DNA of 64,000 nt, from positions 3,958 to 67,957 of IMG/VR virus record IMGVR_UViG_3300021142_001794. The stretch is one strand, 5' to 3'. The position numbers and the translations under genes are program-made. The notes under the pieces were generated by a model, which saw only the letters and a list, made by a program, of their open reading frames with translations, had not been told where the DNA came from and did no database searches. Shown piece by piece: positions 353 to 50,801 of this stretch (positions are counted from its first letter, which is position 1; every line of letters starts with the position of its first letter). The DNA is from a virus.

Positions 353-797
353 AAAGTTTTATAATGCTACTTATATTCATTTAGGTGTTTATATGAATGG
401 TGTATTAATAGGGATATTGCAGTATGGCTATGCTATGAATCCCGCAAGTTGTGGTTCCGTTGTAAAAGATACCGCTATGGATGAATATTTAGAATTAAGA
501 TGTGGCGGGTTTGGTATAGTGTATCAATCCGCAAATTTTGAATATTATGGGGAACACACATCGGACTTTTATGAGCTTGATGGGGAGGTATTTCATAAGA
601 TACAGTTTACGGTTACACCGAAGGATAAAAGATATAAAGCTGTAAAACATTTAATTGATAGAAAAAACGAAGCTATTATACATAAATTAAGGCAATTTAG
701 ATACATTTATTTTATCAATCAGAAAAGCAAAAAAAACGTATTACTTAAAAAAATGCCATATCCTAAGCATTATAATAATATACTTGCGGAAAGTTGA
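348..797 (+). pseudogene. Mom-like adenine-modification acyltransferase, 5'-truncated with internal deletion
   Basis: YNATYIHLGV..LQYGYAMNPAS..EYLEL and GIVYQSANF motifs; the segment normally between EYLEL and RCG appears absent; no native start. Confidence 0.6.
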
Positions 798-870
798 GTA
801 ATTGAAACCCATACTATTACATACGCACTATTTAGCAAATAGGCTTAGTCACCTGACTAATTAACTTTCC
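787..870 (-). tRNA. tRNA-Ser(GCT)
   Basis: Acceptor GGAAAGT/ACTTTCC, anticodon loop TT-GCT-AA, long variable arm, TTCAATT T-loop. Confidence 0.85.
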
Positions 871-874
871 GTAG

Positions 875-958
875 TGAAGGCAGAATGAATCGAACATTCG
901 CAGCCGAAGCAATTGATTTACAGTCAATCGTAACTAACCAACAGTTAACCTTACCACC
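875..958 (-). tRNA. tRNA-Tyr(GTA)
   Basis: ATTGA-CTGTAAA-TCAAT anticodon arm, long variable arm, GTTCGATTC T-arm; imperfect acceptor. Confidence 0.85.
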
Positions 959-963
959 TTATG

Positions 964-1034
964 CACGAACAATAGGACTCGAACCTATACCTTTGGTTTT
1001 GGAGACCAAAATACTACCATTATACTATGTAGGT
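964..1034 (-). tRNA. tRNA-Trp(CCA)
   Basis: TTGGT-CTCCAAA-ACCAA anticodon arm, ATAGG-TTCGAGT-CCTAT T-arm; two acceptor mismatches. Confidence 0.8.
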
Positions 1035-1039
1035 GTGTG

Positions 1040-1112
1040 CGTCAAAGATTGGGGTCGAACCAATATCTACCGATTTTCAGTCGGCTGCATAGACCAGCTT
1101 TGCTACTTTGAC
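1040..1112 (-). tRNA. tRNA-Phe(GAA)
   Basis: Perfect GTCAAAG/CTTTGAC acceptor, GCCGA-CTGAAAA-TCGGT anticodon arm. Confidence 0.9.
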
Positions 1113-1113
1113 T

Positions 1114-1152
1114 AAAACAAAAAACCCGATTAGAAATTAATCCAATCGGGCT
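1114..1152 (-). terminator. Attenuator intrinsic terminator immediately 5' of the tRNA cluster
   Basis: AGCCCGATTGGA-TTAATT-TCTAATCGGGTT hairpin followed by TTTTGTTTT. Confidence 0.85.
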
Positions 1153-1173
1153 ACAATATCTTTACTAAAGTTA

Positions 1174-1242
1174 TCACATGATAGTCCGATTGGTAATTTT
1201 ATACCAACTAAACGAACTGCAATATGACTTATTTAATTTCAT
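1174..1242 (-). CDS. Leader peptide MKLNKSYCSSFSWYKITNRTIM (attenuator control ORF)
   Basis: 22-codon ORF read by hand; TTT AGT TGG TAT are cognate to the four downstream tRNAs; overlaps the antiterminator strand. Confidence 0.8.
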   Translation of the reverse strand: MKLNKSYCSSFSWYKITNRTIM

Positions 1243-1246
1243 AATG

Positions 1247-1254
1247 CAAATATA
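1247..1254 (-). promoter_or_regulatory. Bacteroidota -7 promoter element for the leader/tRNA operon
   Basis: TATATTTG ending 4 nt before the leader ATG (near-leaderless mRNA). Confidence 0.75.
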
Positions 1255-2181: not shown

Positions 2182-4140
2182 TTAAAATGGCGGAATTTCG
2201 TCCGATAAATCCTGTATAAAAAATTTACCTTGTTCTAAATCCTTATCTGGTACGCTATAATATTCTTTTGCTGTCATAGGTTTATTAGCTTCTGTTGTAG
2301 CGTATTGGCTAAGGTATTGCCTTGTTTGGGTATCGTAGTAAAATTGTCTGATACCTACTTTTCCCAACCAATAGAATTTTACTTTTTGAATATGTATTTC
2401 CGTGATACCCGTGTCAAAATGTCTGTAAATACTTAACCCATTATGCGCTTTGTTCGCAAAATGCACTGAACCGCTAATATTCTGCAATGTAGGCACTTCA
2501 TATAATCCGTTTGCATTTTTTGGCATCTTGGTCGGGTGGGCAACTAAAAATACATGAAGATTATATTTTTTAGCGAAAGAAGTAATCTTGCTAAGGAACA
2601 AACTTACATAATTTGTTTCTGGCATACCATTAGGAACATTGTGTTCAAAACAGTTATAAGGGGAAAGAACAACTACGTTTATTCCATATCTAAAAACCAT
2701 TTCTACACACTTTTGTAAAACAGATTCAATCTTGGTATCGATAGCATCTACATTTATAAACTTAAAATAATCTTTAACAAATACAAGACCTTCATCAAAT
2801 TGAGTTAAGTCCATCCTATTTTTAGGATTCTTTCTAAAATCAAATGCTTTACGGGTTCGCTTTTCTAAAATCTTACTTGCGGTAATTTCTGTGTTTTCTT
2901 CAAATTGGCATATAGCTGTTTTCCATCCATATTTTTCAGCTAAACCTACGCAAATATTATTTACTACTTCATCCTTGCCATGCCCATTTATCCCAGTTAC
3001 AACTGTTAATTGTTGCGGAATAAAGGTAAGATAACCTTCTTTGTCATCATTGGTATAATCTAGCATCCCAGATTCAGCACCTTTAGGATAACCATTTAGG
3101 TAATAATCGGTAAGCAATGGCTTAATATCATCCATCGTGCTTTCACCTTCCAAAGGATACAACTTAGCATTGTTCTTTAAGTCTAATACCGCCTGTTTGC
3201 CAAGATATACCAAAACCTCATTTGGGTCTTTACAAGGTTTATAACCAGTTACTTCACCTTCTTCATTACAGATAGGAACTATTAAATCAGTAGGATATTG
3301 CGCTATGTAGCATCGTTCCTTACCTAATCTCCTACTTAGTTCTTCGCACAATCTACGCCCTGCATCATCATTATCGGTACAAATGTAGATTCGTTTCTTG
3401 CACTCAAAGTATTCGTAGCAGTTATCTAAATACTCCAGCTTTACATTGCCTTTTACATTTGCACCATTTGGAACGGACACCGCCGTATATTCGCCACATT
3501 CGTAAAAAGTGTGCGCCTCCTCTTCGCCTTCGCAAATTAGGCACTCTTCTGTACCTTCAATGGCGTCTATATTATAGAATATTAGCTTTGCATCTTTAGC
3601 TAATTTAAAGTCTTTGTTTGCACCCCTAAACTTAATATTGACAAGTTCCCCGTTCTGATAGTAGTTATAATTAATAGTTGTAATTTCACGCTTCGCCTTT
3701 GGCATCCATTCGATAGACTGTGTCACGTTAAACCTAAGAAGTGTGTTATTGCTTATATGCCTTTTTTTCTCATAGCGTTCAATTATCTGTGGGCTTAATT
3801 TTTCAAGTCGTGGTACAGGTTTTTCATATTGCTTTTTACTTTCATTCATTATCTCGTCCACATTGATATTGTACTTTGCCGCCAACAACTTTACCGATTC
3901 TATAAATGTGATTTTTTTGTGTTCTTTAATAAAATCTATTGCATCCCCAGACACGCCGCACCCAAAACATTTGTAAAAATTTCCCGATGGATTAACTTTA
4001 AAACTAGGGGTTTTTTCGTTATGGAACGGACACAAACCAACATAATCAGCACCTTCTTTTTTAAGATTGATATATTCGCTTATTACATCGTAAACACTTG
4101 CCCTATCCTTAACCGCTTGAATCGTTCTTGCACTTATCAT
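2182..4140 (-). CDS. Bifunctional DNA primase-helicase (CHC2 Zn finger, TOPRIM, Twinkle-like SF4 helicase)
   Basis: CPFH..CFGC; CEGE..DNDDAG; GINGHGK; LVAHPTK; ISGS..F. Confidence 0.9.
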   Translation of the reverse strand: MISARTIQAVKDRASVYDVISEYINLKKEGADYVGLCPFHNEKTPSFKVNPSGNFYKCFGCGVSGDAIDFIKEHKKITFIESVKLLAAKYNINVDEIMNESKKQYEKPVPRLEKLSPQIIERYEKKRHISNNTLLRFNVTQSIEWMPKAKREITTINYNYYQNGELVNIKFRGANKDFKLAKDAKLIFYNIDAIEGTEECLICEGEEEAHTFYECGEYTAVSVPNGANVKGNVKLEYLDNCYEYFECKKRIYICTDNDDAGRRLCEELSRRLGKERCYIAQYPTDLIVPICNEEGEVTGYKPCKDPNEVLVYLGKQAVLDLKNNAKLYPLEGESTMDDIKPLLTDYYLNGYPKGAESGMLDYTNDDKEGYLTFIPQQLTVVTGINGHGKDEVVNNICVGLAEKYGWKTAICQFEENTEITASKILEKRTRKAFDFRKNPKNRMDLTQFDEGLVFVKDYFKFINVDAIDTKIESVLQKCVEMVFRYGINVVVLSPYNCFEHNVPNGMPETNYVSLFLSKITSFAKKYNLHVFLVAHPTKMPKNANGLYEVPTLQNISGSVHFANKAHNGLSIYRHFDTGITEIHIQKVKFYWLGKVGIRQFYYDTQTRQYLSQYATTEANKPMTAKEYYSVPDKDLEQGKFFIQDLSDEIPPF

Positions 4141-35785: not shown

Positions 35786-35890
35786 TTTAATTTTGTTTTT
35801 TTTTAGTTTTTAAAAAATTCACTCAACTACACAAGTACGTTAAGGCTTACCTTATTACCGCATCCAAACGCAAATAACATTTCAGCGATA

Positions 35891-35898
35891 CAAAGATA
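35891..35898 (-). promoter_or_regulatory. -7 promoter element for the capsid unit
   Basis: TATCTTTG. Confidence 0.6.
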
Positions 35899-39244: not shown

Positions 39245-39273
39245 AAAAAGGGCAGCCATAGATATAGCCGCCC
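39245..39273 (-). terminator. Terminator after tRNA-Met
   Basis: GGGCGGCTA..TGGCTGCCC followed by TTTTTT. Confidence 0.6.
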
Positions 39274-39314
39274 GTAGAATCAAAAACCCTCCCCATGAAA
39301 GAAAAAAATATTAG

Positions 39315-39387
39315 TAGCGGCGGCAAGGTTCGAACTTGCGGTATCTAGCTTATGAGGCTAACGAGATGACCACTTCTCCACGCCGCA
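39315..39387 (-). tRNA. tRNA-Met(CAT), initiator-like
   Basis: TTAGC-CTCATAA-GCTAG; unpaired 1:72 (T:T); GCAAG-TTCGAAC-CTTGC T-arm. Confidence 0.85.
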
Positions 39388-39392
39388 ATTTA

Positions 39393-39779
39393 TTAGAACA
39401 ATCCCTTTATGTTTCCGCTTGAATTTACACTAGTGGTACTTTCACTAGTCTGTTTCTTTTGTAAGTCCTGCACCGTTGTTTGTAGGTTTGCTATATCATT
39501 GGTTAAAGTAGCAATTACGCCGTTCTGTGTCTTTATCTGTGTAGAATAGTAATGTACAGCGTAAACGATACCCGTAATGGCTGCAACTACTACAATAGCT
39601 TCTACCCAATCAATGTTTTTTAAGAACTCGAAATGGTTTTTTTGTGGTGTTTCTGCTACAACTGTCGTAGGGTTATATTGTGGTGTCACACCTTCAACCG
39701 TTACCCCAGCAGGTTGAATAGCAGGTGTCGTAGGTATTTGTGGTGCGCCCATATCAGGCTGCATTATTGGCTCTGGCAT
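39393..39779 (-). CDS. TM plus coiled-coil protein
   Basis: Central TM, heptad region. Confidence 0.65.
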   Translation of the reverse strand: MPEPIMQPDMGAPQIPTTPAIQPAGVTVEGVTPQYNPTTVVAETPQKNHFEFLKNIDWVEAIVVVAAITGIVYAVHYYSTQIKTQNGVIATLTNDIANLQTTVQDLQKKQTSESTTSVNSSGNIKGLF

Positions 39780-50673: not shown

Positions 50674-50704
50674 TTTGATAATTGATGTATATAATATATA
50701 TTTG
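50674..50704 (+). promoter_or_regulatory. Bacteroidota -33/-7 promoter
   Basis: TTTG (50674-50677), 19 nt spacer, TATATTTG (50697-50704). Confidence 0.7.
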
Positions 50705-50717
50705 CATAATTATTAAT

Positions 50718-50789
50718 TGGGTTATGGTGTAATTGGTAACACGGGATGTTTTGGGCTTCTTATTAGTCGTTCAAGCCGACTTAACCCAA
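50718..50789 (+). tRNA. tRNA-Gln(TTG)
   Basis: TGGGTTA/TAACCCA acceptor, TT-TTG-GG loop, AGTCG-TTCAAGC-CGACT; weak anticodon stem. Confidence 0.75.
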
Positions 50790-50801
50790 CAAAGAAATAA
50801 T

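Follow-up and report, generated by a model that had tools for sequence, protein, structure and literature searches.

The closest described counterparts of the element considered here are the leader-peptide attenuators, for which the general model is outlined in parts of PMC3082878 and PMC1183508. In trpL, pheL, hisL and ilvL of Escherichia coli and Salmonella, a short open reading frame (ORF) follows the promoter and carries control codons in region 1. Helices 1:2, 2:3 and 3:4 can form, a terminator with a U tract precedes the regulated genes, and the stop codon is positioned so that a finishing ribosome masks region 2. To our knowledge, the output of every described leader-peptide attenuator is an operon for amino-acid biosynthesis, transport or a synthetase. 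Control of bacterial transfer RNA (tRNA) genes is usually seen as global, exerted through growth rate and the stringent response, and not as separate for each tRNA. We describe a leader placed before a tRNA cluster in a stretch of viral DNA of 64,000 nucleotides (nt; hereafter the window), positions 3,958 to 67,957 of IMG/VR record IMGVR_UViG_3300021142_001794. The record has 67957 nt, and the sequencing runs containing it are freshwater metagenomes. A first-pass annotation, made from the letters alone, had read the leader as a ribosome-mediated attenuator. Covariation of the helices, and of leader codons with tRNAs, in homologous leaders supports that reading, and we consider it quite likely, on sequence and modelled structure, that this is a ribosome-mediated (leader-peptide) transcription attenuator with tRNA as its output.

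All the features of the trpL plan just listed are shared by the phage leader, and the mixed control codons of the tRNA leaders, serving several amino acids, are shared with ilvL. The differences are that the output is tRNA genes in seven of the eight tRNA-type leaders described below, so that the sensed molecule is the same species as the product, that the messenger RNA (mRNA) is predicted to be leaderless, and that each control codon occurs one to four times; Rfam gives no sequence relation. The non-amino-acid output is a departure from the habit of the known members and not from their mechanism. In T-box riboswitches, too, an antiterminator helix links the state of a specific tRNA to terminator read-through, and they likewise serve tRNA-related genes. 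The phage leader would share that coupling, but T-boxes recognise uncharged tRNA by direct binding, work without translation, control synthetase and amino-acid genes and carry conserved specifier and T-box motifs. A further likeness is to alaL, thrL and trpL2 of Streptomyces lividans, which the portion of PMC8079986 available to us describes as leaderless leader ORFs controlling genes of the decoding apparatus and not biosynthetic genes. These differ in that the output is synthetase protein genes, in belonging to another phylum and in having no sequence relation to the phage leader.

Coordinates of the leader and its tRNAs refer to the minus strand, in the numbering of the whole window. The leader begins with a −7 promoter box of the Bacteroidota sigma-A type (TATATTTG, 1254-1247). 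The leader ORF occupies 1242-1174 (ATG at 1242, TGA at 1176-1174) and has 22 sense codons encoding the peptide MKLNKSYCSSFSWYKITNRTIM. It contains the codon run TCA TAT TGC AGT TCG TTT AGT TGG TAT, the last eight of which (codons 7-14, 1224-1201) would be the control codons. Region 1, the 5' arm of a protector hairpin H1 (RNA nt 15-41, 1228-1202), was assigned from the minimum free energy (MFE) fold and from covariation. Region 2, the 3' arm of H1 (RNA nt 48-70, 1195-1173), was assigned from folds and covariation; it is used twice, being also the 5' arm of the antiterminator (1193-1176), and it contains the stop codon (nt 67-69). Region 3 (RNA nt 84-101, 1159-1142), which supplies the antiterminator with its 3' arm, comes from constrained folds and covariation, and its part 1152-1142 doubles as the 5' arm of the intrinsic terminator, located by folding at 1152-1114. 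The terminator hairpin (1152-1123) has 12 base pairs (five G-C) and a loop of 6 nt, and its T-rich tail, the U tract, extends to 1114. A single nt separates it from tRNA-Phe(GAA) at 1112-1039 (ARAGORN; Rfam, 63 bits), which is followed by tRNA-Trp(CCA) at 1034-963 (ARAGORN; Rfam, 57.8 bits), tRNA-Tyr(GTA) at 958-874 (ARAGORN; Rfam, 32.5 bits) and a tRNA-like element at 870-787, recognised by relaxed ARAGORN and a hand fold. The box, the 22-codon ORF, the codon run and the terminator are thus where the first-pass annotation had placed them. Its three competing helices are also present, with 1:2 in the MFE fold, 2:3 paired at 11 of 12 positions and 3:4 comprising 12 base pairs. An independent promoter between the terminator and tRNA-Phe, which would have told against attenuation, was looked for by scanning the minus strand from 1247 to 1112, and no TAnnTTTG box lies between the two.

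The 133-nt leader has an MFE of −41.2 kcal/mol, as opposed to −20.3 +/- 3.1 kcal/mol in 200 shuffles, 0 of which were as low. Folded as separate segments, H1 has −20.6, the antiterminator (nt 48-101) −16.8 and the terminator −17.8 kcal/mol. The 2:3 core, paired at 11 of its 12 positions, is a duplex of −14.3 kcal/mol, and the antiterminator as a whole is longer than the first-pass annotation saw, with 16 base pairs and two 1x1 loops. Its energy was matched in 0 of 3000 and 5 of 3000 hairpin-preserving randomisations and in 6 of 3000 plain shuffles. In constrained folds, for which ribosome footprint sizes were assumed, a ribosome on codons 11-13 gives the antiterminator at −14.5 to −17.4 kcal/mol (−16.8 to −17.4 for codons 11-12), and one on codon 14 leaves an antiterminator of only −9.0 kcal/mol. 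Folded with no ribosome, H1 forms and the terminator follows. The exact four-family codon run appeared in 56 of 200000 random 21-codon ORFs drawn with phage codon usage, and Phe, Trp and Tyr within four codons in 1318 of 200000. The finding was selected post hoc from a very large scan, and the leader contains direct repeats in which region 1 resembles region 3 and region 2 resembles region 4 (D1, 16 nt, 75%; D2, 13 nt, 85%). Since both facts limit what can be concluded from a single sequence, comparison with relatives was needed.

Homologous leaders are found in Chitinophagaceae. A gapped pattern of the three helix cores, applied to one genome per prokaryote species, led to Segetibacter aerophilus (L207/L209), where a homologous leader and terminator are followed by tRNA-Trp, Phe and Cys (L207). 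The other two of its three genome matches, in Rhizobium and Nitratireductor, were chance. BLAST over 401 genomes of the family added G148, G168 and G171 (L210, L217, L211), and a covariance model over 151 family genomes added G145 and two copies in G099 (L241, L242, L269). That makes eight leaders, the phage leader and seven copies in six genomes, and six of the seven bacterial copies precede tRNAs. Covariance model scores for the eight are 62.9-134.6 bits. The extra matches of a second BLAST round were only ordinary terminators, weaker model matches of up to 46 bits were mostly gene-end terminators, and a His-rich ORF at L266 precedes ClpP genes and is not an attenuator. Among 150 other sampled genomes of the order there was no match at E<=1e-6, and among 151 genomes searched as relatives of G168, which was itself included, the tRNA leader is found only in G168.

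The bacterial leaders and the tRNAs behind them are as follows. In G001 the leader VKRNTSYCSSFSWFNKTNRSTMYDTDLG precedes tRNA-Trp, Phe and Cys; in G148, VKRSMSFCCSFSCSQEASG precedes tRNA-Phe and Cys; in G168, VKKITSYSSSYNWYKYRANVL precedes tRNA-Tyr and Ser(GCT); in G171, MKQQQSYYSSNSWSQYSDVRRAIV precedes tRNA-Trp, Gln and Tyr; and in G145, MKQIISYNSQSCWCLCDAGRAIV precedes tRNA-Trp and Cys. Of the two copies in G099, one (MKKQLLYCNPLCCVPQGHRRSIV, G099a) precedes tRNA-Cys and the other (MKHQMSYSSSYSSFEEGTSRAM, G099b, L269) has no tRNA, having instead a 171-amino-acid (aa) ORF without a Pfam family. All 13 bacterial leader-linked tRNAs are confirmed by Rfam, and the distance from the U tract to the first tRNA is 1-11 nt in seven of the eight leaders. 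Rfam 15 reported no T-box or other family in the phage leader (500-1700) or in L269 at E<=1, and no T-box or other leader family at E<=0.1 in the six bacterial leader loci and a trpE locus (L245) discussed below. The neighbourhoods vary, with a phage lysozyme and integrase in G001, miaE just upstream in G168, RhuM/Fic in G099a, and peroxidase, exchanger and lipase genes in G171 and G145. The phage tRNA-Phe is similar to the leader-linked tRNA-Phe genes of G001 and G148. From these sequences we take the leader to be a bacterial module that this phage also carries, and not a virus-specific one; the module family occurs in Chitinophagaceae chromosomes and in one prophage-like region. As to miaE, its product hydroxylates ms2i6A37 in tRNAs reading UNN codons; the gene (L217:1741-2496, minus strand) lies directly upstream of the Tyr/Ser leader of G168, and most of the leader-linked tRNAs (Phe, Tyr, Cys, Trp) read UNN codons.

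The three helices covary in an alignment of the eight leaders (A6), which was model-fitted except for the antiterminator structure, named by hand. For H1 and the terminator together, 89.3% of cells are paired, compared with 35-44% when the pairing is slid; 12 pairs have changed on both sides, and 0 of 500 shuffles scored as high. The terminator alone has 97.9% of its cells paired and five compensatory pairs among the homologues. In the antiterminator (columns 59-69 with 118-128), pairing extends to 79.5% of cells, as opposed to 23-49% slid; three pairs and six cells are compensatory, and the covariation score of 0.279, against 0.166, was reached in 0 of 500 shuffles. Column 63, which is unpaired in H1, changes together with column 124 (GC in four, UA in two, AU in one), and this would not be expected of a mere relic of duplication. 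Compensatory changes in homologues, which the first-pass annotation had proposed looking for, are therefore present in all three helices. The energies of the three structures are similar in most of the homologues, and the antiterminator segment is at or below −12.8 kcal/mol in seven of the eight leaders.

The ORF is conserved along with the helices. Its frame is open for 19-28 codons in eight of eight leaders, with the other two frames stopping within 0-10 codons. In all eight, a TAnnTTTG-like box is followed 4-7 nt later by the start codon (ATG or GTG), and the stop codon falls inside or just past region 2. We also compared the contigs of four sequencing runs with the leader region. A variant in run X5 (197 nt, depth 7.3) retains the leader from 1227 to 1114, with two changes, one of them synonymous in codon 21 and the other outside the ORF; further upstream, its frame is kept with K-N-N-K instead of K-L-N-K.

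The leader codons track the downstream tRNAs. The comparison covered Phe, Trp, Tyr, Cys and Gln in the seven leaders followed by tRNAs. A cognate leader codon is present in 15 of 15 cases in which the tRNA is present and in 8 of 20 in which it is absent, and the mean cognate codon count is 2.13 with the tRNA and 0.55 without it. The 32 cognate codons observed were reached by 2 of 5040 permutations of the tRNA sets (5 of 5040 with Ser(AGY) included), values that, for related leaders, are not strict probabilities. The covariation of leader codons with tRNA content that the first-pass annotation called for is thus seen. By positions read from the peptides, 29 of the 32 lie in codons 7-16, a stretch that forms the apical loop and 5' arm of H1. 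Phe codons are confined to leaders followed by tRNA-Phe. Ahead of the Phe and Cys cluster, the leader has no Trp or Tyr codons left and carries three Cys codons, and the sole leader before tRNA-Gln has four Gln codons, compared with 0-2 elsewhere.

The promoter geometry is unusual for this phage. Before its other genes the distance from a TAnnTTTG box to the start codon is 16-27 nt, whereas in the leader it is 5 by the same measure, with 4 nt between box and ATG. In Flavobacterium psychrophilum, the sections of PMC9723704 available to us place the box at −12 to −5. Taking that together with the 4-nt spacing here, the predicted transcription start is A1242, the first base of the ATG, and the leader mRNA would be leaderless. 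The same sections report 5.5% leaderless mRNAs in F. psychrophilum and signs of leader-peptide attenuation before amino-acid operons. In Bacteroides thetaiotaomicron, 5' untranslated regions (UTRs) of <10 nt make up 3.7% according to the available part of PMC7366714, and leaderless leader peptides occur in Streptomyces (PMC8079986, likewise in part). The box is not tied to the leader: the same extended box, TATATTTGCAT, is found at 50697-50704 on the plus strand, 14 nt before a tRNA-Gln(TTG) at 50718-50790 that has neither a leader nor a terminator upstream. Since this tRNA has the box and no leader, attenuation is not common to all the tRNAs of the phage. A tRNA-Met(CAT) at 39387-39314 (minus strand) begins 5 nt past the stop codon of an ORF at 39779-39393, with a strong terminator after it (39260-39395 region), and by this layout we take it to be co-transcribed with the protein gene.

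From this we infer that the ORF is translated, that ribosomes can stall on it, and that stalling leads to read-through in response to some physiological signal. Host RNA polymerase, directed by the −7 box, would begin transcription on the A of the ATG or beside it, giving a leader mRNA without a 5' UTR. If no ribosome is slowed, H1 (1:2) would form, or the ribosome would reach the stop codon inside region 2; region 3 would then be free for region 4, and transcription would end at the U tract, 1 nt before tRNA-Phe. A ribosome stalled on codons 7-14 (Tyr, Cys, Ser, Phe, Ser, Trp, Tyr) would cover region 1, the 2:3 antiterminator would form, and the polymerase would continue into tRNA-Phe, tRNA-Trp, tRNA-Tyr and the Ser-like element. 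The tRNAs made would be those whose shortage stalled the ribosome. Since the product would be the scarce tRNA itself, the arrangement would act as negative feedback on decoding capacity.

Several observations weigh against this mechanism. With region 1 masked, the terminator is still favoured in the equilibrium fold, and control would therefore have to be kinetic and co-transcriptional, as it is in trpL. H1 and the terminator look like tandem paralogues, and the 2:3 complementarity, viewed in the single sequence, could be a relic of that duplication. The antiterminator segment of G168 is weak, at −6.9 kcal/mol. No control codon is found more than twice in the phage leader, and eight orphan cases are leader codons for a tRNA outside the leader's own cluster, such as the phage Cys codon. 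Ser(AGY) codons are found in six of the seven leaders irrespective of tRNA-Ser and show no association; the match that the first-pass annotation drew between the codon run and four tRNAs therefore stands for Phe, Trp and Tyr, whose cognate codons are present, and not for Ser, the phage tRNA-Ser being itself doubtful. The G099b leader (L269:280-958), rich in Tyr and Ser codons, has the 171-aa ORF behind it in place of tRNA. The X5 variant (record 13) continues beyond the U tract with 69 letters unlike the window. Finally, eight related leaders are a small sample.

The alternatives differ in how much of the evidence they leave unaccounted for. Attenuation could be real while the natural signal is the supply of amino acids (aromatics, cysteine, glutamine) and not the loss of tRNA, with the tRNA output being a side arm of a starvation response. 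The mechanism is blind to the distinction between an uncharged and a missing tRNA, Phe, Trp, Tyr and Cys are costly amino acids, and the same bacterial family has the same layout before trpE. We nevertheless think this rather unlikely, because extra tRNA does not cure an amino-acid shortage, six of the seven bacterial copies have tRNAs instead of biosynthetic genes as their regulated genes, and the leader-linked tRNA-Trp is a second copy in three genomes, which fits a tRNA reserve. Alternatively, the terminated leader RNA of ~125 nt could be the main product, acting as a small RNA (sRNA), and the tRNAs would come from constant leakage past the terminator. An sRNA gene does combine a promoter, a structured RNA and a strong terminator, and the phage has a second such unit at ~36058-35970. 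In other phages (L074, L091), tRNA-Met stands 6-8 nt behind ordinary gene-end terminators, and the X5 variant has a different 3' neighbour. A terminated trp attenuator RNA working in trans is also recorded in part of the work on Sinorhizobium. The covariation of codons with tRNAs, the covarying antiterminator and the constant position before tRNAs would all go unexplained, however, and an sRNA in place of attenuation is improbable, although an sRNA role could be an added function rather than an alternative.

Slightly less probable again is that the three-helix switch is real and is operated by a protein, a small RNA or a tRNA binding to H1, the ORF being incidental. H1 is long and conserved, and the UUU codon sits in a 4-nt bulge of it. 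Anti-antiterminator designs are also found in protein- and ligand-controlled leaders. Yet the ORF frame is open in 8/8 leaders while the other frames are closed, the start codon is fixed beside the promoter in 8/8, codon identity, and not structure alone, tracks the tRNAs, and no T-box or other Rfam family was found on the leaders searched. The last alternative is a tandem duplication of the ordinary terminator that ends the replication operon upstream, with the codon match arising by chance from the scanning of many windows. The direct repeats (regions 1/3 and 2/4), the location where leftward and rightward genes converge and the picking of the finding after the fact all speak for it. It is close to refuted, and we give it very little credence, because homologues in six genomes stand in unrelated neighbourhoods, always with a leader ORF and in 6/7 cases before tRNAs, and because the helices and the codons all covary. 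Ribosome-mediated attenuation with tRNA output is thus the reading we prefer.

A leader of similar layout stands before trpE in a Chitinophagaceae genome, G086 (L245; G086:C2:10080-10204, minus strand). It shares with the tRNA leaders the TATATTTG box, an ATG 7 nt later, a peptide beginning MKK, a G+C-rich hairpin and the tail TTTTTGTTTT, and it scores 40.6 bits with the covariance model. It differs in having three Trp codons in a row (leader MKKIINNIWWWHTNLNRGL) followed by anthranilate synthase component I. We read it as a classical trp amino-acid attenuator, and its homology with the tRNA leaders is possible.

The tRNA-Trp copy numbers (the comparison covers tRNA-Trp only) suggest a role for the leader-linked genes. 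There are two tRNA-Trp genes each in G171, G145 and G001, whose leader-linked clusters include Trp, and one each in G148 and G168; the leader-linked Trp gene is therefore an extra copy. The anticodon loops of leader-linked and housekeeping tRNA-Trp are identical. A tentative view, possible although we would not call it probable, is that some Bacteroidota maintain reserve genes for tRNAs otherwise encoded once (Trp, Phe, Tyr, Cys, Gln), placed behind a leader that tests decoding by these tRNAs and coming on only when the tRNA pool fails, and that the phage captured this module. The triggers could be tRNA-cleaving toxins, defence nucleases or poor i6A37-type modification of UNN-reading tRNAs, and the phage would make replacement tRNAs only once the infected cell destroys or loses its own. 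An anti-defence role, as a response to tRNA cleavage by defence nucleases, is speculative. Phage tRNAs that offset tRNA-targeting defences (PARIS, anticodon nucleases) are described in PMC10264068 and PMC11464382, and the possible purpose of replacing cleaved host tRNAs would be shared. The portions of these reports available to us concern the tRNAs themselves and describe no demand-controlled transcription.

The mechanism is known; what is new is the feedback logic and the tRNA output. Neither Rfam 15 nor the openly searchable full-text literature yielded a description of a leader-peptide attenuator preceding tRNA genes. A Phe-rich leader before the tRNA-Phe genes of E. coli, considered as a precedent, is not borne out by the sequence upstream of pheV. 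Leader codons matching a leader's own tRNA genes would amount to specific, self-correcting control of decoding capacity, and they would explain the second, diverged copy of an otherwise single-copy tRNA in some genomes. The reserve of tRNAs, if true, would be the first case of tRNA gene transcription under closed feedback by way of translation itself. In a phage, control by such a leader would mean that viral tRNAs can be made when needed, a point relevant to the debate over whether phages carry tRNAs for codon supply or for escape from tRNA-targeting defences. The element, of ~130 nt, could also serve as a natural sensor of the decoding rate at chosen codons.

The last member of the cluster is less certain than the other three. 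ARAGORN with default settings reports 0 genes at 870-787, and a search of 775-885 against Rfam at E<=10 has 0 matches. Relaxed ARAGORN returns a tRNA-like cloverleaf with the same ends and no clear anticodon. When folded by hand, the element shows the loop TTGCTAA, with GCT as the anticodon, along with a canonical T loop and a G as discriminator. The element is tRNA-like by these models, possibly a degenerate tRNA-Ser(GCT). The cluster of four tRNAs given by the first-pass annotation thus holds for Phe, Trp and Tyr, on both ARAGORN and Rfam, but its Ser(GCT) is not detected by standard tRNA models. A contig from an RNA library (run X11) spans 784-955 with three differences, two of them in the Ser-like element and both in loops of the hand fold. 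This run covers only 784-955 and a diverged tRNA-Trp; with zero cover of the leader, it is uninformative on leader transcription.

Searches by synteny, set out from the genes around the leader, found no orthologue, and the pattern searches found the leader on no other IMG/VR contig beyond an identical fragment. Searching IMG/VR with the 134-aa gene upstream of the leader found only this fragment, of 6902 nt, and so did both an exact tRNA-Phe 29-mer and the structural pattern. A profile of the 134-aa gene (12 homologues aligned) gave no Phe/Trp/Tyr cluster in the 80 viral and 80 metagenome loci kept, and coding genes lie immediately downstream in 11 of 11 loci read. Among 40 loci of primase relatives, ARAGORN found no tRNA in the 35 scanned; the relative with 77% identity ends before the tRNA region. 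In GenBank phages, only part of tRNA-Phe was matched, in crAss-like phages; for the primase, the highest identity among GenBank phages was ~37%. A looser family pattern in IMG/VR found eight other loci, none with a tRNA and with model scores of <=40.2 bits. A back-translated peptide pattern had a single match, inside a long gene, and it was rejected as chance. The 30 letters after the U tract of the X5 variant are absent from IMG/VR, the window and the fetched loci; on the plus strand, they form an open frame ending in a stop beside the hairpin.

The tRNA cluster is met from the other side by a Mom-family gene (Pfam PF25680, E 8.5e-31) at 348-797 on the plus strand, the last 11 nt of which overlap the 3' end of the Ser-like element. 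Upstream of the leader, on the minus strand, is the 134-aa protein gene (1280-1684). Its product, which matches no Pfam family and resembles a small nuclease, carries the conserved motifs E..R..FD, EY.G, KS.HT..GG and GW.V, common to hundreds of phage proteins. Several relatives have a tRNA-Met downstream of this gene. In two phages with the 134-aa gene family (L074:1110-1232 and L091:3800-3914), the tRNA-Met begins 6-8 nt after an ordinary gene-end terminator, and in a third (L185:3230-3359) a terminator is followed by a TAAGTTTG box and then by tRNA-Met. Placement of tRNAs directly behind terminators therefore recurs in phages carrying this gene family.

Two further observations concern the leader and its promoter type. 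The first codons of the leader, GAAATTAA, are perfectly complementary over 8 nt to the terminator loop and 3' arm, TTAATTTC (1133-1140 with 1233-1240); the match is A+T-rich and may be chance. The second unit mentioned above, at ~36058-35970 on the minus strand, has the same type of promoter, TATATTTGCA, with a hairpin and T tract ~50 nt further on, and it would yield an RNA of ~85 nt. A further box, TATCTTTG, is found at 35898, with a long 5' region to an ORF starting at 35786. This unit may be an sRNA or another leader.

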